This document shows, piece by piece, positions 1 through 64,000 of a DNA stretch of 64,000 nt. Source of the DNA: Dehalococcoidia bacterium (GTDB lineage: Bacteria > Chloroflexota > Dehalococcoidia > Lucifugimonadales > UBA3495); the NCBI GenBank assembly GCA_965116565.1, contig OZ220699.1, positions 483,589 to 547,588 on the forward strand, given 5' to 3'. Position numbers and translations under genes: made by a program. Position 1 is the stretch's first letter, and every line of letters begins with the position of its first letter. The notes under the pieces are model-generated. The model was given only the letters and a program-made list of their open reading frames with translations, did no database searches and had not been told where the DNA came from.

Positions 1-1
1 G

Positions 2-1318
2 TTGGGTTCGTGGTGGGCTTACACCATCCTCGGATGGGGAGGGTTCTGGTTCTGGGACCCGGTGGAGAACGCGGCGTTCATGCCGTGGATCGCCCTGACC
101 GCGTTCATACATTCGATCATGGTGCAGAAGCGGCGCGGCATGTTCCGGATGTGGAACATCGTGCTGATCAACATCGCCTTCGGGTTCGCGCTCTACGGGA
201 TGTTCATGAACCGGGGCGGGCCGGTTCCGTCGGTGCACTCATTCGGCGCGTCCACGCTGGGTTGGGTCTTCCTGCTGTTCCTGGGATTCGGCGTCATCGT
301 GCCCATGGTGATATTCTTCTGGCGGTACGACCTGGTGCGGAGCGCGCAACGGCTGGATTCCATGCTGTCCCGAGAGGCAGCGTTCCTGATCAACAACCTG
401 CTGCTGCTGGGCGTTGCGTTCGCCACGCTGTGGGGCACGGTGTATCCGCTGCTGTCGCGGCTGTTTGCTGAGCAGGAGATCACGGTCGCCCGGCCCTTCT
501 ACGACCAGGTCAATGGGCCGTTGATGCTGGCGCTGGTGCTGCTCATGGGCGTCGGGCCGCTGCTGCCCTGGCGTCGGGCGAACCTGCAATCGCTGCGGCG
601 GGCATTGCTGCTGCCGGGGACGGCGGCGTTGATAACGGCGGCCGCGCTGCTGGCGGTGGGGGTACGCCAGCCCTACGCGGTGGTCGGGTTCGGTCTGTGC
701 GCGCTGGTCACCACCAGCATCCTGATTGAGTGGACGCGGGGGACCATCGCGCGGCGGCGCAGCGTGGGCGACAATCCAGCGGTGGGGTTCCTTCGCCTGA
801 TCGCGGCCAACCGCCCCCGCTACGGCGGGTACGTGGTCCACCTGGCCGTGGTGATGGTGGCGTTGGGAGTGGTGGGGCAGTCGTTCTACGGCGTGCAGCG
901 CGACGTGGTGATGTTCCCCGGGGATGAGGTAACCGTCGGCGATTACCGCATGACCTACGTGGACACGACGACGTTGGCTTTTGCGGACCGCACCGAGTTC
1001 CGCACCACGGTTGAGGTGTACCACAACGGCGAGTTCCTGGAGGCGATGCACCCGCGGCGGACGTTCCATCCCGACCACAACATGGCGTCCACCCTGGCTG
1101 CCATACGCTCGACGCCGGTGGAGGATTTCTACGTGGTGCCCAGCGAGAACCGGGAGGACGGCGCCGTGGGGTTCCGCATACTGGTGAACCCGCTGGTGTG
1201 GTGGATGTGGGTTGCGGGCCCGGTGCTGATCCTGGGCACAGTGATCGCGCTGTGGCCGTCCCGGGCGCCGGTGCGCCGTCCGGTGGTGGCGCCGGCTGCC
1301 GCCGGCTCTGCCGATTAG
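2..1318 (+). CDS. ccmF: Cytochrome c biogenesis heme lyase CcmF (5'-truncated by window edge)
   Basis: WGGFWFWDPVENA (WWD) motif, SVHSF motif, many TM helices, C-terminal NPLVWWMW. Confidence 0.95.
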   Translation: MGSWWAYTILGWGGFWFWDPVENAAFMPWIALTAFIHSIMVQKRRGMFRMWNIVLINIAFGFALYGMFMNRGGPVPSVHSFGASTLGWVFLLFLGFGVIVPMVIFFWRYDLVRSAQRLDSMLSREAAFLINNLLLLGVAFATLWGTVYPLLSRLFAEQEITVARPFYDQVNGPLMLALVLLMGVGPLLPWRRANLQSLRRALLLPGTAALITAAALLAVGVRQPYAVVGFGLCALVTTSILIEWTRGTIARRRSVGDNPAVGFLRLIAANRPRYGGYVVHLAVVMVALGVVGQSFYGVQRDVVMFPGDEVTVGDYRMTYVDTTTLAFADRTEFRTTVEVYHNGEFLEAMHPRRTFHPDHNMASTLAAIRSTPVEDFYVVPSENREDGAVGFRILVNPLVWWMWVAGPVLILGTVIALWPSRAPVRRPVVAPAAAGSAD

Positions 1319-1328
1319 CCTGCCTGCC

Positions 1329-1625
1329 ATGCAGCTTGGCCTGGCGATCGCCATCGCCCTGCTGATAATTGCCGTGGTGGCGTGGCCCCTGGTGGTGCGA
1401 CGGCGGAATGAATCCGCGACGCCCGAGGTCGAATCCGCGCGCGAAGTTGACCATACCGTCGCGCTGAACTCCGTGTACGACGCCATCCGCACCCTGCAGA
1501 CAGACTACAGGCTGGGACGGGTCAGCGACGACGACTACCAGGAGCAACTGGAGGAGTACCGGCGGCAGGCGGCGCGGATCCTGCGCGAGATGGACCGGGA
1601 AGGCGGACGGGCACAGGATGGTTGA
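1329..1625 (+). CDS. CcmI-like small membrane protein (cytochrome c maturation)
   Basis: N-terminal TM followed by 'YDAIRTLQTDYRLGRVSDDDY' as in CcmI N-terminal domains; directly after ccmF. Confidence 0.65.
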   Translation: MQLGLAIAIALLIIAVVAWPLVVRRRNESATPEVESAREVDHTVALNSVYDAIRTLQTDYRLGRVSDDDYQEQLEEYRRQAARILREMDREGGRAQDG

Positions 1626-6310: not shown

Positions 6311-6727
6311 TCATCGTCGCTTTCGCCATAGTTTTTTGATCAGCGAGATGCCCGCGCCACAGATGGTGATAAGTGCTGCTGATAGGTACAGTATTTCCAT
6401 GGCTTCAACATCAGACCGGATAACCACCACCACTATAAATGTTAGAGCTAATGCCGAGGCTACTAACGCAAACGTTGCCAGTATCGCTTTCCACAATAAT
6501 GGGTAAAGCTCCATCAATCAGGAACTGAAATCGGTGGTGAAGATCAGCACAATGCCGGACACAGCCCCGGCAATCCCAGCAGCACCGGCTATCGAACCAC
6601 CAACGACCGCAGTGATCGGCTGGACGTTGGTGACCACAAATTCTCCAGCCAGCACTGCCACCATGCCGACGAAGAACACAACCATCGACAAAATGAAGAT
6701 ACGATCCCACATAACGCTGCCTCTCAT
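6311..6727 (-). pseudogene. Small 4-TM membrane protein split by an in-frame TGA at 6518-6520 (or two adjacent 2-TM peptides)
   Basis: ORFs 6518..6727 and 6311..6517 are in frame, joined as TGA TTG ATG; low GC. Confidence 0.5.
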
Positions 6728-6833
6728 GCACCCTTACGAAGAGCATGATATGTGTGCCCAAGCGCGCTTGTCAAAAACGCCCGGGGCGGCCTCTGCTGCC
6801 CCGGGCTGAATAGACGACAATCTGCCGGCAGTA

Positions 6834-9151: not shown

Positions 9152-9463
9152 TTAGCGATATGGCTGGACCACCGCCAGCTTTTCCGCCATACGATCCTCG
9201 GCGGTTTCCAGGTCGTACTGGTTCTGTATCCCCATCCAGAACGCGGCGCTGTTACCGAAAAACCTGGCCAGCAGCAGCGCGGTTTCGGCGGTGATGGCCC
9301 GCTCTCCGTGCACGATTGCGTGAATGCGCCGCGGGTCCACACCTATGGATTTAGACACGCGGTATTGGCTGATGTTCAAAGGGATCAGGAACTCCTCGTT
9401 GAGGATTTCGCCCGGATGGATAGGTGGGAGCTTTTCGTTTTCGTTGGATATGCTCAAATTCAT
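9152..9463 (-). CDS. higA: HigA-family antitoxin (XRE HTH)
   Basis: IHPGEILNEEFL...ITAETALLLARFFG...FWMGIQNQYDL; start reassigned to ATG 9463 (GGAG RBS). Confidence 0.93.
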   Translation of the reverse strand: MNLSISNENEKLPPIHPGEILNEEFLIPLNISQYRVSKSIGVDPRRIHAIVHGERAITAETALLLARFFGNSAAFWMGIQNQYDLETAEDRMAEKLAVVQPYR

Positions 9464-9502
9464 GGTTGCTCCTGCACATAATTCCGGTTTCACATACGAA
9501 CT

Positions 9503-9784
9503 TCAATGGTAATCGGTCAACTCAACCTCCAGGGCGTTCCCTGCTTTCCATTCGAAGCAGATCCGCCATTGTTCGTTTATCCGAATGCTATATTGTCCAT
9601 TGCGGTTGCCGGAGAGTTTTTCCAGACGATTGCCAGGCGGTATTCTGAGGTCATTTAAGTCAATGGCATTGTGTAGTATCGCCAATTTTCTCTGCGCGCC
9701 ACGCTGCAAATCCTGAGAAAAACCCTTGATCCGTTTGCGACGAAATATCGATTCAGTATCAGAATCTTTGAAGCTTATTATCAT
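9503..9784 (-). CDS. higB: HigB-family RelE-like toxin
   Basis: MIISFKD, LRIPPGNRLEKLSG, YSIRINEQWRICF, DYH end; upstream of higA. Confidence 0.93.
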   Translation of the reverse strand: MIISFKDSDTESIFRRKRIKGFSQDLQRGAQRKLAILHNAIDLNDLRIPPGNRLEKLSGNRNGQYSIRINEQWRICFEWKAGNALEVELTDYH

Positions 9785-10085: not shown

Positions 10086-11807
10086 TTACCCAACGTCCTC
10101 CACCGGCACCGTCGCGATGCCATACGTCCCGTAGAAGAAGTTGGCGTAGTGGGTGGAACCGCCGGTGACCCACAGCAGGTACTGGTCCGGATCCTCCAGC
10201 GCCGGGATGGTGGCGTCCGGGTCGTCGGCAAGGTGCTGAAGCTCGGGGTGGGCCAGCCACTTGCCGTTCTCGTCGGTGGGCACGCCGTTGCGGATGGCAT
10301 CCTGCAATGACGCGCGGCAACGCTCGTGCAGCCACTCCTGGGCGTCGCGCTTGCTGAAGCCGGCGTTGTTCAGTATGACCGCGCGCGACGGGCTGAGCAT
10401 GATCGGATGGTACGGGCCCTGGTAGGACACGCGCTCGTTGGTGTGGCCAACTTGCGCGGACTGCGGACCCTTGATCCACGCGCCACCGCCGGCGTGGCGG
10501 TAGAACATCATGGACGCGATGTTGTTCAGCGTGTCCAGGTGGTTCTTTGAGGCGTTGTCCAGCACGTCCGTCGGGCCGGTGACGGTTACCACCGTGACCG
10601 CGCTCTCGTCGGGCCGGAACCCCTTGTCCACGTGGTAGGGCTGCCACGGGCTGACCTCTTCGTTCTCGGCAATGCACATGCCGAACTTGGTGGGCAGGCC
10701 GATGAAGTTGGGGTCGCCGGCGCCGGCCTTGCAGTAGCCGATGTTGATGAGGCACAGGCGCAGGGCGCGCCCGATGGCGGTGTTGGCCTTGTTGACCACG
10801 CCGGGCCCCATGGCCGACGTGCCGTAGTTGATGCCGGCCCGGTCCGCTATTGGACCGTTGACCAGAATCAGCGGGGCCTCGGTGTGGCCCGACACCTGCA
10901 TGTCCCGGTGGTTGCTCTCCGGCTGGGCGATGCACTCGATGGCGGCCAGCAGGATGGGGAACTGCTCCGGACGGCAGCCGGCCATGACCGCGTTGATGGC
11001 GATCTTTTCCACGGTGGCCAGGCCGAAGCCGGGCTCCATGACCATCACCACGTCCTGCGGCGCGCGGCGCGTGCCCTTCAGCATGGCCTCCACCAACTCG
11101 GGCGTGGGCGGAACCACGGGCATCCCGTCGCTCCAGTCCCGCTCCTCCATGAATCGGTTGACGGCATCGATGCCCCACGGCGATTCGTCCAGCGTGACGG
11201 TGAACACGTCGGTCTCGCTGTGGCCGTTGGTCATGCCGGACAGGTCGGCCGTCGCCGACATGCGGGTGAGGCCGAGGATGATGTTGTCAATCTGCTCGTC
11301 CACCATGCTGTGGATGTAATCGGACTGCTGCCCGGTGCAGGCGTGGGGGATGGTGACGAACGCCGTCGCGGGCTGGCCCCAGCCGTCCACACAGGACTGC
11401 CAGGCACGGGCGAAACTGCGGGCGGCGATGCCGACGGCGGGGATGCCGGCCCTCTCCATAGCTACCATGTCGTGGGCAAGCCACGACGTGCAGCCCCCTC
11501 AATGGGCGGCGGCGCCCACCATGGCGTCAACCTCGTTGGAGATGATTGCCGCCTCGGCCTCGTCGATGTGCACGCCGCGGCTGAGGGAGGGACGGCCATC
11601 ACGCCGGGGGCCGCCGTAGCTCTCGAACTTCACGTTGGAGTAACGTCGGGCGATGTGCTCGGCCACCCGGTCAACGGCCACGCCGGCGCCGCCGGTCATG
11701 TTGTCGTAAAGGCCGATGGTCTTGCCCTCCAGGGTGTCCAGGCGGGGGGCCGGCGGAACTTTGAAATCCACCCGCGCGGCGGCGGGAGACATTATTCGCA
11801 GCTGCAT
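10086..11807 (-). CDS. UGSC-family selenoprotein (UxxC thioredoxin-like domain fused to a large partner domain), ~573 aa, Sec at TGA 11499-11501
   Basis: ORFs 11499..11807 and 10086..11468 are in frame: ...VGAAAH-TGA-GGCTSWLAHDMVAMERAGIP...; hairpin downstream of UGA. Confidence 0.85.
11469..11487 (-). promoter_or_regulatory. Candidate bacterial SECIS element
   Basis: GUCGUGG-CUUGC-CCACGAC, perfect 7-bp stem starting after an 11-nt spacer 3' of the UGA. Confidence 0.65.
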
Positions 11808-12645: not shown

Positions 12646-12848
12646 GCGATTGGAGTAAAATAATTCAAATGAGCGTGAGAACTCATTCCCAACTCACGAA
12701 TGCCAAACGGCTCTCTGAATCTCGCGCCACTGCCTGAATCAGCAACTGTTACAATTGGCCGGAACAAGCGCAAGGATTCGACTGGCGACGCGCCGCAATT
12801 ATAGTCTCGGAGGAGGAGCCTCGGGGAAGGAGCCTCAGGAGGAACACC

Positions 12849-13139
12849 ATGCCTGCTATCAAGACTCGGCTGGAGGGAGCCTTGGAAGCGAGACGTCGTG
12901 CAAGGGCGAATCCGACGGTAACCCGCAGCCGCTACTCGTTGCGTCGTTTCCTCAAAGCAGCCCACGAGGCGCTCGCGGCAGGTGATGATCCCAAAGCAGT
13001 GGACATGGCGGCGCGCATCTATGTTCACGAAGACTTACGAGGCCGCGTCAACACCATACTTGCGCGCAGCCTGCATGACAAAACTGCAAACCGTTCCCGC
13101 CTGCGCTTAGACAGGTTGAATCGGCGGTCCGAACTGTAG
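12849..13139 (+). CDS. Divergent ribosomal protein S20 (bS20)-like basic protein
   Basis: MPAIK...RRRARAN...FLKAAHEALAAGD...HDKTANRSRLRL parallels S20 blocks; AGGAGG RBS. Confidence 0.5.
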   Translation: MPAIKTRLEGALEARRRARANPTVTRSRYSLRRFLKAAHEALAAGDDPKAVDMAARIYVHEDLRGRVNTILARSLHDKTANRSRLRLDRLNRRSEL

Positions 13140-13146
13140 ACGTGTC

Positions 13147-13638
13147 ATGTCCAGACGATCCGATCCACAGGATGCCGAAGCAGGTGCGGGGGAGAACGGC
13201 GGCGTTGGTCGATCGTCGACAGATATTACTCCAACAGCGCCTCCCTCACCCAGCGAGTCGTCCAGTGAACGCGACACGTTTGGCGCTGATTTGGCGGGGC
13301 ATCAGATCGGTCAGATCGTGATGCAAGCTTTTTCCCGTCTGTTCTAAACCACGAACGAAGAATCCATTGTCGACGCAGAACTAGCTCACAAAGCCCTTGA
13401 TCTCGACCGGCATGAACTGGACTTGATAAACGAAGAGGCAAAACGTGACCACCAGAGAAAGATGCAAGAAATTAAGATTATCGCGTCTCTGGCGGTCGCG
13501 GCGATGATTGTCATCCTGTTCATATGCGGTTTGGTAGCATGGCGTGCACCTGACAAGCTCCTGGAAATCGTCATACCTACCATCACTGCCATAGGTGGCT
13601 TGTTAGGTGGTTACGGTATAGGACGGGTTAGGCGTTAG
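13147..13638 (+). pseudogene. Membrane protein (disordered N-term, coiled coil, 2 TM) interrupted by in-frame TAA at 13345-13347
   Basis: ORFs 13147..13347 and 13423..13638 share a frame; the intervening codons are open apart from one TAA. Confidence 0.55.
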
Positions 13639-13754
13639 ATTGGTTCGCGACTTGCACAGCCGCCGAGATTGTCGGCGCAGTGTGGGAACGATTACAATCC
13701 GGGGGCGAACTGGACCAAGTACCGAGGCGACGCTGGCAACGAGGACTAAACAAA

Positions 13755-14014: not shown

Positions 14015-15373
14015 ATGATGCCTGAACTTCATGAGCTATCGGTGGTAGAAGCCGCCGCGCAAATTCGCGAGGGAACCATTTCGCCGGTGGCCCTGGCGGA
14101 ATCGCTATTGGCGCGGATTGACGCGCTGGACGGGGACCTTCAGGCCTGGGTCACGATTGACCGGGACGCCGTGCTGGCGATGGCGCGGCAGCGGGAGGCC
14201 GAGGTGCAGAGCGGCGCGGCGCTGGGCCCCATCCACGGCGTGCCGGTGGGTCTGAAGGACATCTTCTACACCGAGGGGATGCTCACCGCGTGCGGCTCCA
14301 AGGTGTACGCCGACTTCGTCCCCAGCTTCGACGCCACGTCGGTGGCCAAGATCAAAGCCGCCGGCGGCATCATTCTGGGCAAGGCGGTCACCACCGAGTT
14401 CGCCACGTCCGACCCATCGCCGACGCGCAATCCCTGGAACCTGGAGCACACCCCCGGCGGTTCCAGCAGCGGGTCGTCGGCCGCGGTGGCGGCGCGCATG
14501 GTGCCGGCGGCGCTGGGCTCGCAGACCGGCGGCTCCACGTGCCGGCCGGCGGCGTACAACGGCATCGTGGGGCTGAAACCCACCTACGGGCGCATCAGCC
14601 GGTATGGAGTCGCGCCGGTGAGCTGGTCGCTGGACCACGTGGGCATCCTCACGCGCACGGTGGCGGACGCCGCGCTGATGCTGATGGTGCTGAGCGGCGA
14701 GGACGACAATGATCCCGGCAGCCTGCGCGAGCCCGTGCCCGACTTCGTGGCGCAGATGACGGAGCACGACCGGCCGCCGCGCATCGGGCTGGTGCGGCAG
14801 TATTACCAGGACTACGCTACGCCCGAGATCTGGGCGCATACGGAGGCGGTTGCCAACCAATTGGCGGAGGCGGGAGCAGAGGTGGAGGAGATCCCGCTGC
14901 CGGACAGCTTCGCCCGGGTGCACAGCTTCCAGCGGGTCGTCATGAACGTGGAGTGCGCCGGATTCCACCAGGCCAACCACCGCATCCGCGCCGCCGATTA
15001 CGGGCCGCGCATACGCGGCGGCATGGAGATGGGAATGATCATGCCCACGTCCACGTACATGAAGGCACAACGGCTGCGCCGGCAGTTCCGCGCCGACATG
15101 AGCGAGATGGCGGCCCGGGTGGACGTGGTGATGACGCCGGCAACGCCGGCGCCCGCGCCGAAGGACCTGAACACCACGGGGGACGCGGCGTTCCAGCAGC
15201 CGTGGACGGCGGCCGGCCTGCCGACGGTGGTGGTATCGACAGGACTGAGCGAGCTTGGGATGCCCATGGCCGTGCAGTTCGGCGGCCCGTGGGGTCAGGA
15301 GGGCCAGGTGCTGGGCGCAGGGCAGTGGTGCGAGCGCATCGCCGGCCTGAACCAGGCGCCGCCCGTTTCTTGA
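14015..15373 (+). CDS. Amidase-signature family enzyme
   Basis: GVPVGLKD (Lys), PGGSSSGS, GSQTGGSTCRPA (Ser-cisSer-Lys triad). Confidence 0.93.
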   Translation: MMPELHELSVVEAAAQIREGTISPVALAESLLARIDALDGDLQAWVTIDRDAVLAMARQREAEVQSGAALGPIHGVPVGLKDIFYTEGMLTACGSKVYADFVPSFDATSVAKIKAAGGIILGKAVTTEFATSDPSPTRNPWNLEHTPGGSSSGSSAAVAARMVPAALGSQTGGSTCRPAAYNGIVGLKPTYGRISRYGVAPVSWSLDHVGILTRTVADAALMLMVLSGEDDNDPGSLREPVPDFVAQMTEHDRPPRIGLVRQYYQDYATPEIWAHTEAVANQLAEAGAEVEEIPLPDSFARVHSFQRVVMNVECAGFHQANHRIRAADYGPRIRGGMEMGMIMPTSTYMKAQRLRRQFRADMSEMAARVDVVMTPATPAPAPKDLNTTGDAAFQQPWTAAGLPTVVVSTGLSELGMPMAVQFGGPWGQEGQVLGAGQWCERIAGLNQAPPVS

Positions 15374-15698
15374 CACCGCCAACCGTTCAGGAACTATAGC
15401 GATGCCCGACAATCAAGAACTGTTGAAACGCATCACGGCTCGTCCGGATGTGTTTGGAGGAAAACCGATTGTTCGCAACATGCGGATATCGGTCGAGCTC
15501 ATCCTGAGCCTTCTGAGCCAGGGAGCCACCACGCAAGAACTGCTGGACGACTACCCTGACTTGGAACCGGAAGACATGCGAGCCTGCGTTGCCTACGCTC
15601 ACGCCGTCATCGCCGGAGACACACTCGGCACGGTTTCAATAGCCGAGACATGACGCCGTTATGCTCAGCGTGCCCGCCCGTTTCTTGACACCCCCAAC
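15359..15698 (+). repeat. 25-bp direct repeat (15359-15383 / 15674-15698) flanking the DUF433 gene
   Basis: CCGCCCGTTTCTTGACACC(G/C)CCAAC, 24/25 identical; contains amidase stop codon and TTGACA. Confidence 0.85.
15402..15653 (+). CDS. DUF433-domain protein (orphan putative antitoxin)
   Basis: RITARPDVFGGKPIVRNMRISVELIL...LLDDYPDLEPEDMRACVAYA. Confidence 0.88.
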   Translation: MPDNQELLKRITARPDVFGGKPIVRNMRISVELILSLLSQGATTQELLDDYPDLEPEDMRACVAYAHAVIAGDTLGTVSIAET

Positions 15699-16020: not shown

Positions 16021-16521
16021 CTAGCGCGGCCTGATCAGGGTCAACGTGGCAATGTACAGCCTCTCGCTGACTGAGCTCTGCAAGTAGCCGAGGATAGCCG
16101 CTTCGGTTTGACTGAGGTGCCCTCTGGCCTCCTGTGCCGTGATGACGGCGGTGTGATCGTAGTCCGCCGAGTGGCGGAGCTGCTGCATGAGGTCAAATGT
16201 ATCCGCGAAGTTGCGTGCTGGAGCGGAGAATTCATGGCGGTGGCGCCGAAGTTCACGGCGGGCGGGCGAATGGTCAAGTCCACGGTATATGCGCGACCAA
16301 GCAGCGACGGCCAGAGCGTCGCCTGGTGAACCGATGAGCATATCGGCGTTGCTTTCTGCCAGTGCGTGAAAAAGGGCGTAGTAGGCGTTGCTGATGGCCC
16401 TGCGGACGTGCCCGCCGGTGGGAGTGAATACCCCACGTCGCGTGTCGAGGAGGTCGTATCCCGCCTGTACGAGTTGACGCCAATCGACGGGCGTGGGCGG
16501 CAGGCCCCTGGCGGTAGTCAT
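16021..16521 (-). CDS. HEPN-domain protein
   Basis: RRAISNAYYALFHAL and LRHSADYD motifs. Confidence 0.8.
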   Translation of the reverse strand: MTTARGLPPTPVDWRQLVQAGYDLLDTRRGVFTPTGGHVRRAISNAYYALFHALAESNADMLIGSPGDALAVAAWSRIYRGLDHSPARRELRRHRHEFSAPARNFADTFDLMQQLRHSADYDHTAVITAQEARGHLSQTEAAILGYLQSSVSERLYIATLTLIRPR

Positions 16522-16808
16522 CTGCTCAGTTCGCCTCTATCCGAATACGAGATGTTGGGCGGATGGATGATCCCGGCCTTTTGGCAAACGTCGCGCATGT
16601 CGCTGCTGAATTCCAGCATCTTGTGAGGGTCGAGTTCGGGATGATCGTCTTCCAGGATCACGCGGATGTAAACGAAGTCCTCTTCGTCCGGGCCGGTCCG
16701 GTTTTCGGCTTTCACGTCGTTAATGATGAAATCGGCCGACAGGTAGTTGGGCAGTTCGTCCCTGATGATGCCGGCGATTTTTTCCAGGGTTTCGGGATTG
16801 GCGGTCAT
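16518..16808 (-). CDS. Small acidic partner of HEPN gene (possible degenerate nucleotidyltransferase-fold antitoxin)
   Basis: 4-bp overlap with the HEPN gene; start reassigned to ATG 16808 with GAGG RBS. Confidence 0.6.
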   Translation of the reverse strand: MTANPETLEKIAGIIRDELPNYLSADFIINDVKAENRTGPDEEDFVYIRVILEDDHPELDPHKMLEFSSDMRDVCQKAGIIHPPNISYSDRGELSR

Positions 16809-17060
16809 GGTTCCAACCTCTCGGAGTCGCGCTGTCATTTGATGATATTTTGCGCCGGAGACAAGGGTCAAGCAAGGCGGTGTCATTGTGAAAATGCGGG
16901 CCGCAGCCGTTCATGGGCCGAAACGGTTATGTTCGAGGCATGAGGAGTTCTTGTCCTGGCAAGCGCGCAACGGGGATAATGTTCGCGTATGGGATCCGGC
17001 GTTCGTCGAATAAGTTGACCCTCATGGCATTTGCCGATTTTCAAAGCGGAGTCTCTTGAT

Positions 17061-21262: not shown

Positions 21263-21307
21263 GGCTTTCGCAGTCGGTGGTTCGGCAGGTTGGCGGGAGA
21301 TTTTCAT

Positions 21308-21448
21308 CCGCTCATGGTGGGCCTGTCGAACCATCCGTCGATTGCAATGGCATCCGTCGACAGGCTCAGGATGAGCGGGAAGGCGGTCAGGATGATCGGG
21401 AAGGCGATCAGGGTGAGCGGGAACAGGGTCAGGATGAGCGGGAGGGGA
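21308..21448. repeat. Inverted REP pair (CCTGTCGAACCA / TCGACAGGCTCAGGATGAGCGG) followed by four 21-bp tandem derivatives
   Basis: Units at 21365, 21386, 21407, 21428, consensus nTCAGGaTGAgCGGGAagg. Confidence 0.8.
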
Positions 21449-22249: not shown

Positions 22250-22570
22250 GTGCCAAGACCTCCTCGTTCTCGTTTGAAATGGGGCGCATTAGATACTGCC
22301 TAGCCATCATAACACGGTGGTGATGGAGGCCAAGTCACCGGCCTCCGTGCACACGAGCGATCTGAATGTTTCGGCCCTCGGTGGGCCGTGGTTACCCAGG
22401 TGGTTGCGTAACCCAAGAGGTCGTCCAAGAAGCAAACCGGATCATACCCGTCGCGAGCAGCCAGGTTTGATTGAATGTCCGATACACCCAAGACCAGCAT
22501 GGCGTGTATGGCGCGGTTGGTATAATGCGGTCGTAATCGCGCGCGGTCCCACCGGTGCGGAGATACCCAC

Positions 22571-24070: not shown

Positions 24071-24171
24071 TGGTTGTTTGATAGAACAAAGGTAAATCAG
24101 GCGATCGTACGACTTGCACGCACTGAATCCTATTGCAATTCATGCCCGATTTTGTTTGATGGTTGTTTGAT
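24066..24171 (+). repeat. Exact 17-bp direct repeat TTTGATGGTTGTTTGAT (24066-24082, 24155-24171)
   Basis: Two identical copies 89 bp apart, each itself an 11-bp-period repeat of TTTGAT. Confidence 0.8.
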
Positions 24172-24202
24172 CACCACCCCGCAAGAGCCCCGGAGGCCCA
24201 TC

Positions 24203-25204: not shown

Positions 25205-25274
25205 CGGTATCGGGCGGAATGTGACAGCGTGTGAGCCGCGCATTCCGCCAGAACGATTGTGAGTATGATGCTGC

Positions 25275-26777: not shown

Positions 26778-26837
26778 ATTTTATTTGCACGTTGTCTGCA
26801 AAATCGGCGCGAATCGCACGTTTGCCCACATCCTCCA

Positions 26838-43309: not shown

Positions 43310-43872
43310 AGGTGCTCATAATTCCTGAGGACTTTCGAAATGATCAGCACATACTCACGGCAATGTTCACTCGACTATTGCGCAATATTGGAGACACTTC
43401 TCCCAAAGTCAGGATCTGTCGCGATCCCCTGCTCGGCGGGGTGACGGAAGCCCTTAAGTCCGAGCGCATCGCCGAGATCATGGAAGCCAACCGTGGGATG
43501 TTCGACCTGTTCATCCTCTGCGTGGACCGGGACGGCGTGCTCGGCCGGCGGCAGCGGCTTGACGAAATAGAGCGCGAATTTGGCCCACACTTCCTTGCGG
43601 AAAATGCCTGGGAAGAACTTGAAACGTGGGCATTGGCAGGTCTAGATCTGCCGCCCCAATGGCGTTGGCAGGACGTTCGCGCTGAGGTTCACGTCAAGGA
43701 GCGGTACTTCGAGCCGCTGGCCACGCAACGGGGCTTATCCGATGCGCCCGGCGGTGGCCGGAAAGCGCTCGGTGACGAAGCCTCCCGCAACATCCCAGCC
43801 ATCCGCCAGAAATGTCCCGAGGATTTTGACGACCTGGCGCACCGCTTGCAGGCAATCGGGCAAACACCGTAG
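43306..43872 (+). CDS. TOPRIM-like partner protein (DUF4276-type)
   Basis: IIPED and CVDRDG acidic motifs, EELETWALA; GTGA overlap with ATPase. Confidence 0.7.
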   Translation: MKVLIIPEDFRNDQHILTAMFTRLLRNIGDTSPKVRICRDPLLGGVTEALKSERIAEIMEANRGMFDLFILCVDRDGVLGRRQRLDEIEREFGPHFLAENAWEELETWALAGLDLPPQWRWQDVRAEVHVKERYFEPLATQRGLSDAPGGGRKALGDEASRNIPAIRQKCPEDFDDLAHRLQAIGQTP

Positions 43873-47591: not shown

Positions 47592-48218
47592 CTAGCCGGC
47601 AGCAGGCGCGGGCGCCACGTCCTCCGCCGAGATTATGACCTGGCCGTCGTCACCATGAACATGGCGGTAGAGCGGCCTGATGGCCGCGAGCAACTCCTGA
47701 TGACGCCGATCGTTCTGTTCGCCGGACCGCTCAAACATCTGCAGGGTTTCCTGCCTTGCCCTTTCTATGGAATCGTGCGTTTCCTGGCGCATTCGCTCCA
47801 TCGAATCGTGTGTTTCCTGACGCATTCGCTCCATCGAATCTTGCGTTTCCAGTCTCATTCGTTCGATGGTTTGCTGCGTATCATGATGGCGCCGATCCAC
47901 CACTTCCAACATTCCCTGGCGCAACCGCTCCATGTTTTCCTGCGTTCCTTCGCGCAACCGCTCCATGCTCTCCTGCGTTTGCCTGTGCTGCCACTCCATG
48001 TTTTCCTGCGTTTGCTTGTGCTGCCACTCCACCAGCTCAAGAGATTCCCTGTGTCGTTCGTCAATCCTGAGGCGCGTCTCCTGGTGCTGACGGTAGTTGG
48101 ACCTATCGCGAAAGTTGATTGTCCAAATGAAAATGCCGGCAATCAGCGTAATCAGGGCGATCATTGCCCCGACGCCGATTCCCGCGAGTTGGATCAGTTC
48201 AGCGTTCGTTGCCATCAT
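47592..48218 (-). CDS. Single-TM protein with 11-residue-repeat coiled coil
   Basis: N-terminal TM; QETHDSMERMR repeats encoded by 33-bp tandem units at 47770-47868. Confidence 0.8.
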   Translation of the reverse strand: MMATNAELIQLAGIGVGAMIALITLIAGIFIWTINFRDRSNYRQHQETRLRIDERHRESLELVEWQHKQTQENMEWQHRQTQESMERLREGTQENMERLRQGMLEVVDRRHHDTQQTIERMRLETQDSMERMRQETHDSMERMRQETHDSIERARQETLQMFERSGEQNDRRHQELLAAIRPLYRHVHGDDGQVIISAEDVAPAPAAG

Positions 48219-48332
48219 GTAATTCGCTGCTGAGCGACTGTCCATACTTTACCATTAAAGTTGCGCAACCCCATTCCATCATTGTCCATATAAAATGGAC
48301 AAATCAACCCTTATCTTCATGGAGAAGAACCA

Positions 48333-53388: not shown

Positions 53389-53492
53389 GGGGTGATGGTT
53401 TGGACGCTGGAGTTCCCGCCAGAAACCTTCGCGATGTTAGAATGAGGACACACCACACGATTGTACTATGGCAGGAGTCGGGAGGAACGACG

Positions 53493-53813
53493 ATGGCTAT
53501 AAGAAATGCGGCAACTACCTCGAGCAAGCCCATCCGTATGACGGATTCAGACTGGGAAGAATGGATGGGAGACCCACAAATGGTCCGTGAGGAAATGGCC
53601 GAGCATTCGGAACGCCAACGACAAATGAACAGCATGGTCGATGACTTGACCCGTCAATACCCTGATCAATGGGCGGCGCTGACGGAAAGCGGCGAGTTGC
53701 TGATTGCCCCATCTTTGGACGCACTGATTACGGAACTGCGCCAGATGCAGACTCGCCCGGGCAGCAACGTGATTGAGTACTTGGACACCGATCCTGACAG
53801 CTTGATACTATGA
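53493..53813 (+). CDS. DUF5678-like small protein
   Basis: YPDQWAALTESGELLIAPSLDALITEL; GGAGG RBS; coupled to protease. Confidence 0.7.
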   Translation: MAIRNAATTSSKPIRMTDSDWEEWMGDPQMVREEMAEHSERQRQMNSMVDDLTRQYPDQWAALTESGELLIAPSLDALITELRQMQTRPGSNVIEYLDTDPDSLIL

Positions 53814-54217
53814 TCATCGGCCAATTTGACGAACGCGGGCGTCCTTTTATAGAGGGACGCCTGTTGATCCCCCGCCTGGGCCTCGCAGGGCGGGTGAATT
53901 TTTTGGTAGATACAGGTGCAAGCGGCATGTTGCTGCACCCGCGGGATGCGTCTGACATGGACTTGCCCTTTGGGAAACTGGTCAATCCAGTGCAGCGCGT
54001 GGGTATCGGTGGAGCGCACACATACTACACCGAATCCGCAAGCATACTATTTCTCGACTCTAACGAATGGCGGCGTTTTGACGTTGACCTGAACATCGCA
54101 CCACCGAATCCGGATGCGGACCGTTTACCATCCCTAATGGGGAGGGAAGTCTTGAATCAGATGCGGATGGATTATGACTTCCCGGCCCGGCGGCTGGAGT
54201 TCACAGTCAGCGTCTAG
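53810..54217 (+). CDS. Retropepsin-like aspartic protease
   Basis: FLVDTGAS, SLMGREVL; ATGA overlap. Confidence 0.85.
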   Translation: MIIGQFDERGRPFIEGRLLIPRLGLAGRVNFLVDTGASGMLLHPRDASDMDLPFGKLVNPVQRVGIGGAHTYYTESASILFLDSNEWRRFDVDLNIAPPNPDADRLPSLMGREVLNQMRMDYDFPARRLEFTVSV

Positions 54218-54225: not shown

Positions 54226-54252
54226 TAAGGGCGACGCATGCGCCGTCCTTAC
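54226..54252 (-). repeat. RAYT-type REP hairpin
   Basis: Minus strand GTAAGGACGGCGCATGCGTCGCCCTTA, imperfect palindrome between convergent genes. Confidence 0.7.
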
Positions 54253-54276: not shown

Positions 54277-55848
54277 TCAAACGCCGGCTTTGATGAACTC
54301 GGCCACGCGCTCGCCGATCATTATCGTGGTGGCGTTGGTGTTGGCGCGGATGACGTCGGGCATCACCGAGGCGTCGGCGACCCGCAACCCCTGCACCCCG
54401 TGGACCTGGCCGTGCTGGTTGACCACGGCCATGGGGTCGCTGTCGGGACCCATCTTGCAGGTGCCGGCGATGTGGTGCTGGGTGTAGGCGTTGCGCAGGA
54501 TCCAGGCGTCCAGCGCGTCGTCGCTGACCAGGTCGGCGTCCACCGGGTTGAGCCGCTCGACGATGAACTCTTTGAATGGGGACTCCTGTGCAATCTCCAG
54601 GGCCTTGCGGATGGCCTGGCGCATGCGCTGGCGGTCGTAGGGGTCGCTGAATAGCTGGTAGTCCAGGTCGGGCTGCACGGCGGGGTCGGTGGACTGGAGC
54701 GAGAGTCGGCCGAAGCCCACGGCGTTCTGCAGGCCGACGCTGAGTCCGAAGTGGAAGCCCTCGCCGTCGTAGGACACGCTGGCCGGCCGGTGCTCGCTGG
54801 TCATCAGCGTGGGCGTGATCTGGAAGTCGGCTTTGGTCGGCGAATCGTCGGCGCTCCAGCGCAGGCCCACCTGGATGTTGGGCGCGAAGGTGTCGGGCTC
54901 CTCGCCCTCGCCGCGGAACAGGATATACGCGGCGGGATGGTCGCGGAAGTTCATGCCCACGCCGGGAAGCTCGTGGTTGACGGGGATTCCCATCTCGCGC
55001 AGGTGGTCGGCCGGCCCGATGCCCGACAGCAGCAGGATCTGGGCGGAGCCGATGGTGCCGCTGCACAGCACGATCTCGTTGCCCTCGACGGTGAAGATCT
55101 CGCCGCCGCTCTCGACCTCGACGCCTACCGCTCGTGGTGAGCCTGTCGAACCATCGCCATCGAGGATCACACGGCGGGCGTGGATGTTGCCGCGCACGGT
55201 GAGGTTCAGGCGATGGCGGGCGGTGTTGAGGAAGGTGAGCGAGGTGCTCATGCGCACGCCGTCGATGTTGTTCATGGGGCGCGGCGAGATGGCGGTTTCG
55301 CAGTCCGGCGCGTTCTGGTCGGGGTGCTCGGGGATGCCCAGGGCGATGCAGGCATCGTAGAAGGCGGTGTTGAAGGGCAGCCAGTCGTCGCGCCTGGGGC
55401 GGCGCACGGGCAGCGGCCCCTCGGAGCCGTGGAAGTCGTCGCCGCCGAAGTCCCAGTCGTTCTCCAGCTTGCGGAAGAAGGGCAGGCAGTCGGTGAACTT
55501 CCACTCGTCGTTGCCCCACTCGGCCCACAGGTCGTAGTCCTCGGGGATGCCGCGAAACACCACCTGGCCGTTGATGGACGACGAGCCGCCCATGGCCTTG
55601 CCGCGCGGGATGACCATGAGTTCGTCCTGCGACGGGTTGGCGCGGCCGCGCAGGTCCCAGCTGTGGGGGCCGTAGGCGGAGAGCCAGGTGTTGTTGCCCT
55701 GCTTGAGGTCCTGGGGCAGATGCTCAAAGTCGGGATAATCGGGCCCGGCCTCCAGCAGGATGACCGACTTGTCGGTCTGCTCGGACAGCCGCGTGGCCAT
55801 CACACAACCGGCGGAACCGCCGCCAACCACGATGTAGTCATACTTCAT
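54277..55848 (-). CDS. GMC oxidoreductase (choline dehydrogenase-like)
   Basis: VGGGSAG, PRGKAMGGSSSING, HIAGTCKMG, VADASVMP, ANTNATT. Confidence 0.95.
   Translation of the reverse strand: MKYDYIVVGGGSAGCVMATRLSEQTDKSVILLEAGPDYPDFEHLPQDLKQGNNTWLSAYGPHSWDLRGRANPSQDELMVIPRGKAMGGSSSINGQVVFRGIPEDYDLWAEWGNDEWKFTDCLPFFRKLENDWDFGGDDFHGSEGPLPVRRPRRDDWLPFNTAFYDACIALGIPEHPDQNAPDCETAISPRPMNNIDGVRMSTSLTFLNTARHRLNLTVRGNIHARRVILDGDGSTGSPRAVGVEVESGGEIFTVEGNEIVLCSGTIGSAQILLLSGIGPADHLREMGIPVNHELPGVGMNFRDHPAAYILFRGEGEEPDTFAPNIQVGLRWSADDSPTKADFQITPTLMTSEHRPASVSYDGEGFHFGLSVGLQNAVGFGRLSLQSTDPAVQPDLDYQLFSDPYDRQRMRQAIRKALEIAQESPFKEFIVERLNPVDADLVSDDALDAWILRNAYTQHHIAGTCKMGPDSDPMAVVNQHGQVHGVQGLRVADASVMPDVIRANTNATTIMIGERVAEFIKAGV
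55128..55155. repeat. REP copy embedded in frame in the GMC gene
   Basis: 26/28 identical to intergenic 21308-21335; encodes DGSTGSPRA. Confidence 0.85.
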
Positions 55849-56147: not shown

Positions 56148-56939
56148 ATGATGCGGTTCCTAAGGCCCGGGGCATATCGGGCGACCAACGTGATCCTGGC
56201 CGGGTTTATTCTCATCTTGTCCACGGTGTCCTGCGTTGGCGAGAGCACCGCGGGTGTTGATCCAAATCTCAGCGAATCAGTTTCGCGTCATGTGCATTTA
56301 GAGGCACCAAAAAGCCGCTGGGACCTGGCGCGGGACGCAGCCATCGCCGGGCAGGCTATGGCAACGATCATCGCGATCGGTTTGGGCGGTGTATTTGCCT
56401 GGCGACGTGGTTATCTTTTTCGCACAGGGCAACCGTACATAACAATCGCACACGAGATTACGCATCGGCGCGTTAGTGACGGGTATGTCCAACTGGAATT
56501 GACGGCGACCGTTCACAACCCGTCGCGGGTCAAAGTTGAGCTCCGGGACGCTCTATTCATCGTCCAGCAATTGGCTCCTGCGAGCGACGACTATGTTACC
56601 GACCTGTACCGCCGGGCGTTCGGCGAGCACGAACCCAGGCAGTACCGACCCTTGGCATGGGAGTATCTGGATGAAATCCCCCGCGTCTGGAACAAAGATG
56701 AACTGCTCGTCGAGCCAGGGGCGTCAGTAGCCGTCGCTTTCGAGTATGTACTGTCCGTTGAGATTCACTCGGTATCTATAACCACTCATTTCTATAACAC
56801 GAAGGTAATGGGAAAAATACCCGCTGGTACAAATCCACGCGACGCGGAAAACAGGAAACATTTCGGGATGTGGGCGGCATCCGGAACCAAAGGCTGGAAT
56901 CGCACCACTACCTACGATATACTCAGAGAAGAACTTTAG
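56148..56939 (+). CDS. Hypothetical membrane/exported protein
   Basis: 263-aa ORF, signal-like N-terminus plus internal TM; lower GC. Confidence 0.7.
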   Translation: MMRFLRPGAYRATNVILAGFILILSTVSCVGESTAGVDPNLSESVSRHVHLEAPKSRWDLARDAAIAGQAMATIIAIGLGGVFAWRRGYLFRTGQPYITIAHEITHRRVSDGYVQLELTATVHNPSRVKVELRDALFIVQQLAPASDDYVTDLYRRAFGEHEPRQYRPLAWEYLDEIPRVWNKDELLVEPGASVAVAFEYVLSVEIHSVSITTHFYNTKVMGKIPAGTNPRDAENRKHFGMWAASGTKGWNRTTTYDILREEL

Positions 56940-57856: not shown

Positions 57857-57880
57857 GGCAAAGGCCAGCGGCCAGTTTTA

Positions 57881-57960
57881 CCGGGATAAACAGGATGAAC
57901 GGGATGGACAGGATATTTGACAGAGGAAAATGCGTAGGGGCGAACAATCATTCGCCCCTG
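57881..57960 (+). repeat. Four 9-bp tandem units (ACAGGATGA-like) plus RAYT-type REP GTAGGGGCGAACAATCATTCGCCCCT
   Basis: Units at 57881-57916; REP at 57934-57960 with GTAG foot. Confidence 0.8.
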
Positions 57961-61130: not shown

Positions 61131-61316
61131 GGACAAACCTGCCGCGTGGGTGAGTGAGGCCGATGGTAGGCACGGCGACGGGGGTTGTCAACGAAGGCAA
61201 TGACCGGCGACTGTTCCGAGTCGGTGGGCGCCCTCATTAAAACCCTGCCGTTCCCGGAAACACGGCAACCCGGACAGCCTGCGCACCGGCAAACGTGAGG
61301 ACAGCAAGGATTTCCC

Positions 61317-61341
61317 GGATACCGGCTTTCGCCGGTACGAC
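61317..61341 (-). repeat. GTCATTCC-family REP variant
   Basis: Minus strand GTCGTACCGGCGAAAGCCGGTATCC. Confidence 0.75.
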
Positions 61342-61495
61342 GGTCTCATTGCGGGACCGTCGTCTCAAATTTGTACCGCCACGGCCACGGTAGCAAATCC
61401 ATCCGTTACGGTAGCGGAGCCATCATGCAATCCACGAACCGGTTTTCATCTCGGGGCGTCAAGTTCCGAGATGCAACTATTTGAAAATCCAGGTA

Positions 61496-61604
61496 TGACA
61501 CCCGCCCGTTGCCCATGGTAGCGCCCACGTTCTAACCTACATACGTCAGGTTCCCCAACCGGTACTCGAGAACCGCGCGGGGTCGCCGCATCGCATGCAG
61601 CGGC
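61496..61604. repeat. ~110-bp dispersed repeat, copy 2
   Basis: See 31653-31760. Confidence 0.9.
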
Positions 61605-61837
61605 AGCCACCAACCAGACGACCCAGCCTTGCCAGCAGGCACCATCCTGGAGGCGGCAGCCTGAACAATATCAACGGGGATGACGCTTATCCCACCACGG
61701 ATACTTGACGGGACGTAACCGCCCTTGCTCCGGCCTTGACATCGATCCCGAAATCTGATTCCATTGGCAGCCACTCAGGTCAGTTACCGTCACACACGCC
61801 ATTTTTTGGACGTATACCGTTAGGAGGAGGCCCAAGG

Positions 61838-63724
61838 ATGTCGTATATCCATATGCGAACCCGGAATCTTAGGGCGTTGGCATTATCATCTCTGGCCGTG
61901 GTAGCCCTGTTGATTGCCGCTTGCGGCACTGCTGAGCAACCGGCCCAACAGGTGGAGCCGCAGGTCATCGAGAGGGAGGTCGTCAAAGAGGTAGAAGTCA
62001 CCAGGGAAGTCCAGGTGGAGGTCGAGAAGGAAAAAATAGTTGAGGTTGAGAAAGAAGTAGTAAAAGAGGTCCCGATAGAGAAGGTGGTGTTCGCCACCCC
62101 GGTGGCCGGCGTTCACCAGACGGATAGACCCGAATGGGTGAGCACTGGCGCCGACCATCACTACAATGGCGACTTCGTCTTTGTGCACCGGGCCAACCCT
62201 GGGTTCCTGGACGTGCACTATGGGGCCAGTTCCACCACTACCCTCTTGCCCTCCGGCCCTCGGTTCAACCAACTCCTGATGTACAACCCCAGGGAGCCGA
62301 AAGAGATTATCGGCGACCTGGCCCAGAGTTGGGAGATCAAGGATGGGGGCAAGAATTTCGTGTTTCGCCTGCACGATGCCAACTGGCACGACGGCACCCC
62401 GGTAACTGCCGAAGACATCGTTTGGAGCCTCAACCGAATGTCCCAGCCCGATGTTACGCGGGGCCGAGTCACAGCCATCCGTACCTTCTACGAGCACGGG
62501 AGCGCAGTGGCAGTGGACGACCAAACGGTGCTGATGCCCCTGAAGTTCCCCTCTTCGACGGCTCTGGGCTGGCTGGCTGTGGACTACTACAAGATTTATC
62601 CCAAGGCCCTGGAGAGCGTGTCCCAGGACGACTTCAACTGCTGTTTCAAGAACACCTTCGGATCCGGCCCCTGGAAGTTCAGGTCCTGGAAGAAAGGCGA
62701 CTCCTACGAGTTCGACCGCAACAACGACTACTTCAAGGATCCCATGCCCTATGCTGACGGCATGAAGGTGTTCATCATCACCGACTATGCCCGGCGTCTG
62801 GCCACCCTCAAAACCCAGCAGGTTATGGGACGGTACAACATGGGCGGCATCCTGCTGGCGGACGTTGAGCAGGTGCAGAAGGAGACCGGCGGCAAGATGC
62901 GGGTTCTGAAGGGCGGCGCCGCCGGCGTTTACGGTTTCTGGTTCCACTGGAACCGGCCGCCCCTGGATGACCCCAAGGTGCGTAAGGCGATTTACCTGGC
63001 GCTGGACCGCCACGAGATCGCTGAGATTTCCCAGGGTGGCGCAGCCCTGGTTGGCAACTTCTTCCCGCCTGGCTATGCCCTCAGTGAGGAAGAAGTCATG
63101 GAGTTGCCAGGCTTTCGCACCAACGCTGAAGGCTTGAAGCATCCCGACGACTTGGTCGAGGCCAAACGGCTGCTGGCCGAAGCGGGCTACCCCGATGGGT
63201 TCAAGCTGACCTACAACGTGGATCAGAGCAAGTTTTCACGGACCAACAGCGAGCTGATGGCGGACCAGTTGAGGCAGCATCTCAACATCGATGTGGAGCT
63301 TCAGGTCGCCGACCGGGCTACTTTCTACGCCCAGTTGCGGGATGGCACCCACGACTTCAGCCAGATCGGCACCGGCCTCTACTTCAAGGAGCCGGAAACG
63401 GTGCTGGCCCAATGGTACTTCCTGGACACTCTCCGCAACCCCCATAACTGGTCCCACCCCCGCGTTACCGAGTTGATGGACTTGCAGGGGAAGGAACTGG
63501 ACTCGGAGGTCCGGCGGGGATACTTCCAGGAGATGGCGGAAATCCTCAACGAGGGAGAGGGCCACTGGGTTCCCCTCTATTGGACCGCCAGCAGCGGCCT
63601 CATCGACTACCGTTTGCAGAATATGCGGCCGCCCTACCACCCGCATACCATCTGGACCTGGGAGCACGTTTGGTGGGACCCGGACGCAGAGTTGCTCGGC
63701 CCGGACGCTCCGCCCATCGAGTAA
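61838..63724 (+). CDS. Family-5 (peptide/nickel) ABC transporter substrate-binding lipoprotein
   Basis: Lipobox IAAC, GDLAQSW, WHDGTPVTAED, GSGPWKF, VRKAIYLALDR; AGGAGGAGG RBS. Confidence 0.95.
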   Translation: MSYIHMRTRNLRALALSSLAVVALLIAACGTAEQPAQQVEPQVIEREVVKEVEVTREVQVEVEKEKIVEVEKEVVKEVPIEKVVFATPVAGVHQTDRPEWVSTGADHHYNGDFVFVHRANPGFLDVHYGASSTTTLLPSGPRFNQLLMYNPREPKEIIGDLAQSWEIKDGGKNFVFRLHDANWHDGTPVTAEDIVWSLNRMSQPDVTRGRVTAIRTFYEHGSAVAVDDQTVLMPLKFPSSTALGWLAVDYYKIYPKALESVSQDDFNCCFKNTFGSGPWKFRSWKKGDSYEFDRNNDYFKDPMPYADGMKVFIITDYARRLATLKTQQVMGRYNMGGILLADVEQVQKETGGKMRVLKGGAAGVYGFWFHWNRPPLDDPKVRKAIYLALDRHEIAEISQGGAALVGNFFPPGYALSEEEVMELPGFRTNAEGLKHPDDLVEAKRLLAEAGYPDGFKLTYNVDQSKFSRTNSELMADQLRQHLNIDVELQVADRATFYAQLRDGTHDFSQIGTGLYFKEPETVLAQWYFLDTLRNPHNWSHPRVTELMDLQGKELDSEVRRGYFQEMAEILNEGEGHWVPLYWTASSGLIDYRLQNMRPPYHPHTIWTWEHVWWDPDAELLGPDAPPIE

Positions 63725-63936
63725 CGGGCTTTCCCTTGCGTCTGATTTAGACGCCGCACCCGGTTATCCTGGGGCACCGTGTCAGTGCCCCAGGACAGGG
63801 TGAATATTGTCCAACCCATACGAGTGAGAACTGCCAAGCATAGACAGTGACCTTTGACCGCCCAGTTCCAGGGACTTCCGGTTCCAGGGGCTCGCGGTTC
63901 CGGGATGGAGAGGTCACCGAGGCGTCGGGAGGAGTG

Positions 63937-64000
63937 ATGAAAGGCTATGTGGTGAGGAGGATAGGCCTCTTCATTCCCACCATGCTTCTGACTACCGTAA
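63937..64000 (+). CDS. ABC permease (OppB/DppB-like), 3'-truncated by window edge
   Basis: MKGYVVRRIGLFIPTMLLTTV after GGAGGAG RBS. Confidence 0.75.
   Translation, partial: MKGYVVRRIGLFIPTMLLTTV

Follow-up and report, generated by a model that had tools for sequence, protein, structure and literature searches.

Turnover hot spots with single toxin–antitoxin and defence cassettes in a Dehalococcoidia genome, and duplicated gene 3' ends around some of them

How small toxin–antitoxin (TA) and defence genes come to lie singly among metabolic genes, with no mobile genetic element (MGE) in sight, is the question raised by a 64,000-nucleotide stretch of the genome of a Dehalococcoidia bacterium (GenBank GCA_965116565.1, contig OZ220699.1). 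This stretch, referred to below as the window, corresponds to C1:483589-547588 of a closed genome (G000) of 3.87 Mb and approximately 63% GC. An earlier reading made from the letters alone (the sequence-only reading) had described small cassettes sitting one to a gap and had proposed a distributed capture system with gene ends and repetitive extragenic palindromic (REP) hairpins as landing sites. The cassettes were mostly real, in that approximately 13 accessory units of low G+C content at third codon positions (GC3) were found, one per gap and dispersed among conserved genes, but some of the families named for them were not confirmed. GC3 was 0.60-0.69 for all units as opposed to 0.80-0.92 for neighbouring genes. 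The architecture is of a known kind, namely that of dispersed hot spots or minimal mobile elements with TA and defence cargo. Of the gene-end idea, a narrower version holds, namely a recurrent, direction-specific footprint of duplicated gene tails, for which the best explanation is host recombination acting where homology exists on one side only.

Genes in the window were called from codon statistics, with the genome's own long open reading frames (ORFs) as training set, and approximately 70 ORFs were profiled against Pfam, PADLOC and NCBIfam. The relatives used for comparison were congeneric species, given here by handles such as G002, each represented by one genome and with LepA identities of 85-94% among them. 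Syntenic regions were mapped with tblastn and blastn. G018 was collinear with the window over 11.9-54 kb, G032, G016, G002 and G003 spanned parts of it only, and the surroundings of LepA in G017 and G012 showed no synteny with the window.

Most window gaps were empty in congeners, differently filled, or occupied by a copy far more diverged than its flanks, and these gaps behave as turnover hot spots; the cassettes are therefore not simply vertically conserved, in agreement with what the sequence-only reading had required of them. The gap between the genes for asparaginase and the transporter MFS1 is a clear hot spot, with at least five different cargoes over approximately 20 species and no cargo in three of them (G032, G013 and G011). 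Thus, an AlbA-type gene was found there in the window (AlbA2) and, at 70% amino acid (aa) identity between flanks of 92-97%, in G018, G031 and G001, a 1100-aa gene in G002, a 458-aa gene in G003, dCTP deaminase-like and DUF1524-like genes (recognised by eye alone) in G016, and other filling of 1.5-6 kb in approximately eight further species. In the same gap, G018 retains a fragment of approximately 100 aa (C96 13724-14578, L021) with the motif EVWEFRIGGYQ..DKWLK, which resembles the C-terminus of a type IIG/ISP restriction enzyme. The 1100-aa gene of G002 (gap 2597184-2601308) occupies the equivalent site and, if the two are related, the G018 fragment is a decayed predecessor in the hot spot.

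Similar patterns were noted at the other gaps. The site of a 1.1-kb patch (12653-13752) measured merely 40-150 bp in G018, G003, G002 and G032, the gap of the orf110 element (31652-32451) was empty in the same four species, and the abhydrolase|asparaginase gap that holds a first AlbA-type gene (AlbA1) was empty in G018 and G016, at approximately 150 bp. The retropepsin gap was empty in G003 (15 bp), G008 (103 bp) and G002 (146 bp), held other cargo of 2.7 kb in G017 and contained a copy of 58-69% identity in G018. A pair of PaREP1-like genes was missing from G003 (87-bp gap), and pairs of 44-50% aa identity stood in the same place in G032 and G016 between flanks of 94%. The restriction-modification (RM) genes were missing from G003 (31-bp gap) and from G032, in which an orf172 homologue directly follows DUF7700, and the AAA_21 pair was missing from G003 (AcrB|AprB gap of 32 bp), the G018 copy of this pair being 60-63% identical at the aa level between flanks of 88-95%. 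The DUF433 cassette was missing from G002 and G003 and was represented in G018 and G032 by a copy of 88-89% aa identity. A HEPN-like pair was not at its window site in G002 and G018, and a pair 55-66% identical to it adjoins the UGSC-family gene in G003; a higA homologue (73% aa identity) lies approximately 1 kb from UGSC in G002, other relatives having either a HEPN-like gene or nothing there. The orf217 site had a different filling of approximately 600 bp in G018, and the orf263 gap varied in length in G003 and G018.

Two copies of upstream-gene 3' ends, reported by the sequence-only reading, were real and far above background. When every unit was checked systematically for flanking direct repeats and 29 core genes served as controls, repeat scores of 22 and 28 were obtained for the DUF433 cassette and AlbA2, respectively, as opposed to scores of 11 or less for the 29 core genes and the remaining 11 units, and 11 of the 13 window units lacked a bracketing repeat. 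The DUF433 cassette (15359-15698; gene 15402-15653, plus strand; Pfam DUF433, 2e-22) is bracketed by a 25-bp repeat (15359-15383 and 15674-15698, 24 of 25 positions matching) of the sequence CCGCCCGTTTCTTGACACC(G/C)CCAAC, one copy of which stands at the stop codon of an amidase gene and the other just upstream of tRNA-Lys. Within the repeat lie both the stop codon of the amidase gene and the TTGACA -35 box of tRNA-Lys. In G002, which is without the cassette, the amidase stop sits inside TTGACA upstream of tRNA-Lys, and the duplication therefore keeps both the gene end and the -35 box. The same insertion was present in G018 and G032, where additional material had entered beside it afterwards.

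The second repeat brackets AlbA2 (25127-26901; gene 25275-26777, plus strand; Pfam SLFN_AlbA_2 and HATPase_c_4) and consists of the asparaginase tail (25127-25204) and a non-coding copy (26824-26901) identical to it at 60 of 78 positions; the final 23 nt of the copy are exact, and it has an in-frame TAG. At the empty site of G032, one asparaginase tail abuts the region upstream of MFS1. G016 retains the displaced asparaginase tail with approximately 50 nt upstream of the tail, yet carries different cargo, and the duplication at this site is therefore old, its cargo having been replaced between the copies. Differences between repeat copies were most frequent at codon position 3, followed by position 1 and then position 2, a pattern in which a foreign donor tail and divergence in situ are not separable. 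Only DUF433 and AlbA2 had direct repeats containing the target gene's 3' end, as expected of the attL and attR sites of an island. The junction of the PaREP1 pair lies between the DUF4386 promoter and its start codon, without duplication; at AlbA1, the abhydrolase|asparaginase intergenic region is replaced and has no flanking repeat; and the RM junction lies beside a terminator hairpin, again without duplication. A third candidate duplication, at the AAA_21 cassette (CTAGTTTG..TTATATTAACCC compared with GTTTGGTGTTACAAT), was rejected as too weak and is perhaps a promoter resemblance combined with 5-nt microhomology.

The recurrence of duplicated gene tails was evident from a genome-wide scan of 2,920 gene calls, in which the last 70 nt of each gene together with 15 nt beyond were searched for in the 6 kb downstream and, as control, in the 6 kb upstream, gene starts being treated likewise. 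Gene tails had 16 non-genic copies downstream and one upstream (one-sided binomial p of approximately 1e-4), whereas gene heads had three downstream and five upstream. The excess is confined to 3' ends copied downstream and is both recurrent and direction-specific. Approximately nine clean loci of the form tail-cargo-tail were recognised, with cargo of 300-1600 bp and lower GC (53-64%) and with repeats of 25-123 nt that were 77-100% identical and mostly ended at or near a stop codon; tandem paralogues, IS/TnpB cases and three long partial-gene copies (approximately 270-300 nt) were also among the matches. The cargo of the clean loci included DUF433 and AlbA2, the only two confirmed by hidden Markov model (HMM), genes that by eye resemble a BrnT/BrnA pair, a PIN/VapC pair and a Uma2 nuclease, and several of no recognised kind. 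The tail repeats differed in sequence and length at each locus (25-317 nt) and had no common core.

The Uma2 locus (G000 3493306-3494222) illustrates this variation. Its repeat is 43 bp and perfect, the empty site of G017 has one tail copy that aligns with both repeats, and in G013 and G016 only 40-85 bp separate the gene from its downstream flank. In G018, the second copy beyond the same cargo is a 317-nt gene fragment, while G009 and G001 carry the cargo without a second tail copy. Insertions with matching empty sites exist, the upstream tail is duplicated, and the length of the repeat varies among loci and, for one cargo, among species. As for the proposal that gene ends serve as landing sites, the 16:1 recurrence of downstream tail copies speaks for it but the 11 of 13 window units without a repeat do not.

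The account that we consider most probable, at roughly 0.6, is that of ordinary flexible-genome hot spots turned over by host recombination, together with tail-duplicating insertions on one-sided homology and with no dedicated capture system. According to this account, many gaps between conserved genes would be small turnover hot spots with one TA or defence cassette in each, and most cassettes would be gained, swapped and lost by host homologous recombination (double crossover) in the conserved flanks, which would leave no scar. In a recurrent, scarred minority, a duplicate of 25-120 nt (occasionally approximately 300 nt) of the 3' end of the upstream gene lies beyond the cassette. Such a scar may arise when incoming DNA has homology on one side only, at a conserved gene tail, and integration may then proceed in one of two ways, through insertion-duplication, in which a circularised fragment enters by one crossover, or through homology-facilitated recombination on that one side. 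Most of the repeats end at or near the stop codon, the point at which homology of donor and recipient would be expected to run out. Selection would retain both copies, the first completing the upstream gene and the second often bearing the promoter of the downstream gene; for tRNA-Lys, such a promoter is visible in the sequence, and for MFS1 it is plausible. The bias of tails over heads may likewise stem from selection, since duplication of a tail would spare both the upstream gene and the downstream promoter while duplication of a head would part a gene from its promoter. With no common repeat core and no assignable enzyme, nothing indicates a dedicated system, and host recombination, which explains most of what was seen, is preferred to the distributed capture system of the sequence-only reading.

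Several observations weigh against this account. Homology of 25 or 43 bp is short for a RecA-driven crossover. The AlbA2 tail copy, when compared with orthologous tails, was a mosaic with no clear donor. The 317-nt fragment beyond the Uma2 cargo of G018 was closest to its own gene (91%). Some of the scan matches represented not insertions but tandem paralogues or genes duplicated in part, the gene calls scanned were crude and home-made, and the relatives are separate species with a single genome each.

The alternative that survives best is duplication in situ, in which a gene tail and the cassette downstream of it are duplicated in tandem and one copy is then deleted or decays, the cassettes being old, vertically inherited and differentially lost. 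This is a serious rival for some loci, namely 6314-6763 and a retropepsin array, but seems unlikely as a general explanation. At the scan locus 6314-6763 (minus strand), the downstream TA operon recurs in tandem as a diverged copy, which makes up the cargo, the duplication extending 120 nt beyond the stop codon, the retropepsin array is tandem, the G018 fragment resembles its own gene most closely, as noted above, and BrnTA and VapBC cassettes are common to subsets of congeners, many in number. On the other hand, duplication in situ requires two steps per locus and leaves unexplained the clean empty sites in close relatives beside cargo in distant ones, the fact that G016 and the window differ in the cargo enclosed by these shared repeats, and the low GC3 of the cargo.

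Quite improbable, in our estimation, is a recombinase acting in trans, for example one of nine non-Xer tyrosine recombinases elsewhere in the genome, that inserts small circular cassettes at gene 3' ends and leaves the tail repeats as attL and attR. Repeats at gene 3' ends of which the first copy restores the gene are the product of integrative elements that target such ends, the tail signature is recurrent and direction-specific, and the genome holds 11 matches to PF00589. However, none of these matches falls within 483589-547588, and neither recombinase nor transposase domains were found among the approximately 70 window ORFs scanned, which bears out the earlier statement that the window has no integrase or intact transposase. 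No recombinase was found in or near the cassettes, and neither an own integrase nor a shared att core, as expected of integrative islands, was noted. The repeats differ from locus to locus without a common core, the repeat at the one Uma2 cargo is 43 nt long, 317 nt long or missing, depending on species, and the 11 repeat-free window units also argue against such an enzyme.

Hairpin-directed insertion of the REP/RAYT (REP-associated tyrosine transposase) type or another, by which cassettes would land at REP hairpins or terminators, is largely refuted for this window and scarcely credible, for although an 18-copy hairpin stands at the left RM border (34370-34392), another follows the retropepsin gene and REP-like hairpins adjoin some cassettes in relatives (G018 and G032 at DUF433), REP-like elements (multi-copy 14-mers with at least 8 genomic copies) were counted at 2 of 26 cassette borders vs 5 of 26 core|core gaps, the RM-border hairpin coincides in position with the terminator of DUF7700 in G003, and no Y1_Tnp/RAYT domain (PF01797) was found in the whole genome at E<=0.001. 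The REP half of the earlier proposal was accordingly dropped. A REP-like cluster with 16-33 genomic copies was located in a core|core gap (21307-21446), and further REP-like hairpins were located at 28375-28398, 54229-54242, 57876-57959 and 61316-61343 in addition to that at 34370-34392. A REP-type sequence with 21-39 genomic copies was also noted in frame inside the GMC oxidoreductase gene (55128-55155).

Among known systems, the closest are minimal mobile elements (Saunders & Snyder 2002; Snyder 2007, via PMC3787668) and MGE-free hot spots of horizontal gene transfer (Oliveira et al. 2017, PMC5635113), the latter attributed to recombination at flanking core genes (PMC5635113). In the window, as in these systems, different whole-gene cassettes or none were found between the same conserved flanks and no mobility genes were associated with them; the cargo is often RM, defence or unknown, and the mechanism proposed is homologous recombination in the flanks. 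Minimal mobile elements, however, were described among strains of a transformable pathogen, whereas the present comparison is among species of an uncultured Dehalococcoidia genus, and some of the cassettes seen here, unlike those of either system, have duplicated gene tails, which are not a double-crossover product. Core defence hot spots of P. aeruginosa (PMC10250203) and E. coli defence hot spots without identifiable MGEs (PMC10121019) resemble those of the window in their fixed core-flanked positions, their highly variable content and, in some, the absence of identifiable mobilisation, but are few with many systems in each, as opposed to many gaps with one small cassette in each. Homologous segments on both sides of an insert, resulting from one-sided homology, are known from insertion-duplication of the Campbell type, from homology-facilitated illegitimate recombination (PMC3240628) and from merodiploid formation in transformation (PMC3784515). 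Whereas these processes are known mainly from laboratory constructs and experiments, the present footprint is that of a natural genome, and no description of such a footprint, spread over a genome at the 3' ends of genes next to TA and defence cassettes, was found in the literature. With integrons and the TA cassettes of superintegrons, the units of the window share small size, a paucity of promoters, frequent TA content and capture without a transposase of their own. Unlike integrons, however, the window has no IntI, attI or attC and no array, and its dispersed cassettes have no common recombination site, their borders and tail repeats sharing no attC-like palindrome. In rhs genes, an incoming piece with a conserved end and new cargo reportedly pushes the old 3' end downstream, where an orphan fragment is left. 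The part displaced in rhs is the toxin tip of a polymorphic toxin gene, whereas here the upstream genes are metabolic and unrelated and the cargo is separate. Diversification of rhs genes by C-terminal displacement is outlined in PMC2935791.

The remaining units of the window were identified as follows. The higBA genes, between OppD and the UGSC gene, consist of higA (9152-9493; HTH_3, PF01381, 1.6e-8) and higB (9503-9784; HigB-like_toxin, PF05015, 2.7e-18), which are adjacent on the minus strand with 9 nt between them and which combine a HigB/RelE-fold toxin with an HTH antitoxin, as in type II TA systems. Four units were additional to those of the sequence-only reading, namely the patch at 12653-13752, orf217, orf263 and the orf110 repeat element. 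The patch, specific to the window, lies between the metallophosphoesterase gene and orf84 and contains orf128 and orf96, neither of which matched a family. A HEPN-like gene (16021-16521) and an overlapping upstream partner of 122 aa (together 16021-16886, minus strand) lie between tRNA-Leu and the histidine kinase gene. Two HEPN types had been named, but the match of this gene was weak (E=0.006, under the Pfam cut-off), its partner had no match and no second type was found.

AlbA1 (22321-24197; gene 22571-24070, plus strand) has the same Pfam domains as AlbA2. Its closest homologues were in Dehalococcoidia metagenome-assembled genomes at 68% and 60% identity, followed by many phyla at 41-59%. 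The position of AlbA1 coincides exactly with one junction of an inversion: the segment 11716-24200, which spans the metallophosphoesterase gene through abhydrolase266, has one orientation in the window, G018 and G016 and the opposite one in G002, G003 and G032, in which the metallophosphoesterase gene adjoins the asparaginase gene divergently. The PaREP1-like pair (29788-30923, plus strand) was recognised from its second gene (30474-30923; Pfam PaREP1, 2e-8), the upstream 261-aa gene giving a weak PaREP1 match (E 0.065). The type II RM unit (34337-36196, plus strand) consists of adjacent genes for a D12 methyltransferase (34421-35338; Pfam MethyltransfD12, 9e-32; PADLOC MTase_II, 1.5e-80) and a restriction endonuclease (35280-36059; PADLOC REase_II, 2.1e-55).

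The AAA_21 unit (42035-43872, plus strand) consists of an ATPase gene (42035-43309; Pfam AAA_21, 1e-29) and a translationally coupled gene for a protein of 188 aa. An ATPase-TOPRIM pair had been named at this site; the ATPase stood, as component A of the PADLOC candidate system PDC-M07 (PDC-M07A, 214 bits), but TOPRIM had no HMM support, the 188-aa partner having a visible E..DxD pattern and no PADLOC, Pfam or NCBIfam match. The middle of the ATPase gene (42270-42708) had no DNA match to the G018 copy, both ends matching at 73-82%, and a 14-mer in this segment, CTCAAATGAACGGA, also belongs to the leader of the orf110 family. The low-GC3 orf217 (47592-48245, minus strand) lies between TfoX and an amidohydrolase gene, and orf263 (56148-56939, plus strand), also of low GC3, lies between the GMC oxidoreductase and UDG genes. 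The retropepsin pair (53490-54217, plus strand) encodes a small protein (53490-53813) and a retropepsin-like aspartic protease (53810-54217; Pfam Asp_protease_2, 8e-7). Of the two retropepsin modules named earlier only this one was found, a tblastn search of the window with the protease giving no second copy, and four more pairs were found elsewhere in the genome. In the hisH-hisA interval (G000 3810650-3812490), retropepsin-pair cassettes stand in tandem, each ending in the same junction of approximately 83 nt that takes in the first codons of hisA, which amounts to a junction duplication in array form. No family match was obtained for the 188-aa and 122-aa partners, orf172, orf217, orf263 or orf110 in Pfam (E<=1), NCBIfam or PADLOC.

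The orf110 element consists of two adjacent repeat families on the plus strand (31652-32451). Family A is a non-coding repeat of 246 bp (31652-31897) with approximately 22 genomic copies of 78-88% identity, a second window copy being a 109-bp fragment (61496-61604); its folding was no better than that of shuffled sequence (z -0.77), and it had no Rfam match. Family B (31895-32451; approximately 545 bp and approximately 35 genomic copies) contains orf110 (32117-32449), preceded by a conserved leader of approximately 220 nt. The product of orf110 is a conserved, all-helical protein of 110 aa with at least 16 intact paralogues of 65-89% aa identity, and the pLDDT of its AlphaFold model (65) was too low for a structure search. 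In nearly all cases, a copy of family B has the orientation of the gene that follows it and stands 40-210 nt before that gene, often amid REP clusters.

The backbone of the window is housekeeping and metabolic, with genes for CcmF, a TlpA-like redoxin, a ROK kinase, SDR, OppD/OppF, a split UGSC-family protein, metallophosphoesterase, amidase, tRNA-Lys and tRNA-Leu, histidine kinase, luciferase-like monooxygenases, asparaginase, two MFS transporters, LepA, AcrB, AprBA, amidohydrolases, a Cys/Met PLP enzyme, GMC oxidoreductase, UDG and SBP; a search of the window against Rfam gave nothing beyond the two tRNAs. The UGSC-family gene (10086-11807, minus strand) consists of two ORFs of 102 and 460 aa in the same frame, and this split, with a gap of approximately 30 nt, recurs in every congener examined and is compatible with an in-frame TGA (selenocysteine).

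The movement of defence and TA genes without a visible mobile element is an open question of the hot-spot literature (PMC5635113, PMC10121019, PMC10250203). The present genome gives a countable footprint, in the form of 3' tails duplicated downstream of small cassettes at 16:1 over the control direction, and relatives provide corresponding sites that are empty, filled or filled otherwise, so that one MGE-independent route is directly testable. A bolder and, in our opinion, doubtful extension is that a cassette and the final 25-300 nt of a conserved gene may jointly form a minimal mobile unit without a recombinase of its own, in which the tail would be a portable homologous landing pad, excision between tails would release a circular molecule, and one crossover in a naive genome would rebuild the arrangement of tail, cassette and tail. 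If this were true, TA and defence genes would have, in the 3' ends of genes all over the genome, a capture platform independent of integrons. The footprint itself, if found in other phyla, could mark recently acquired cassettes.

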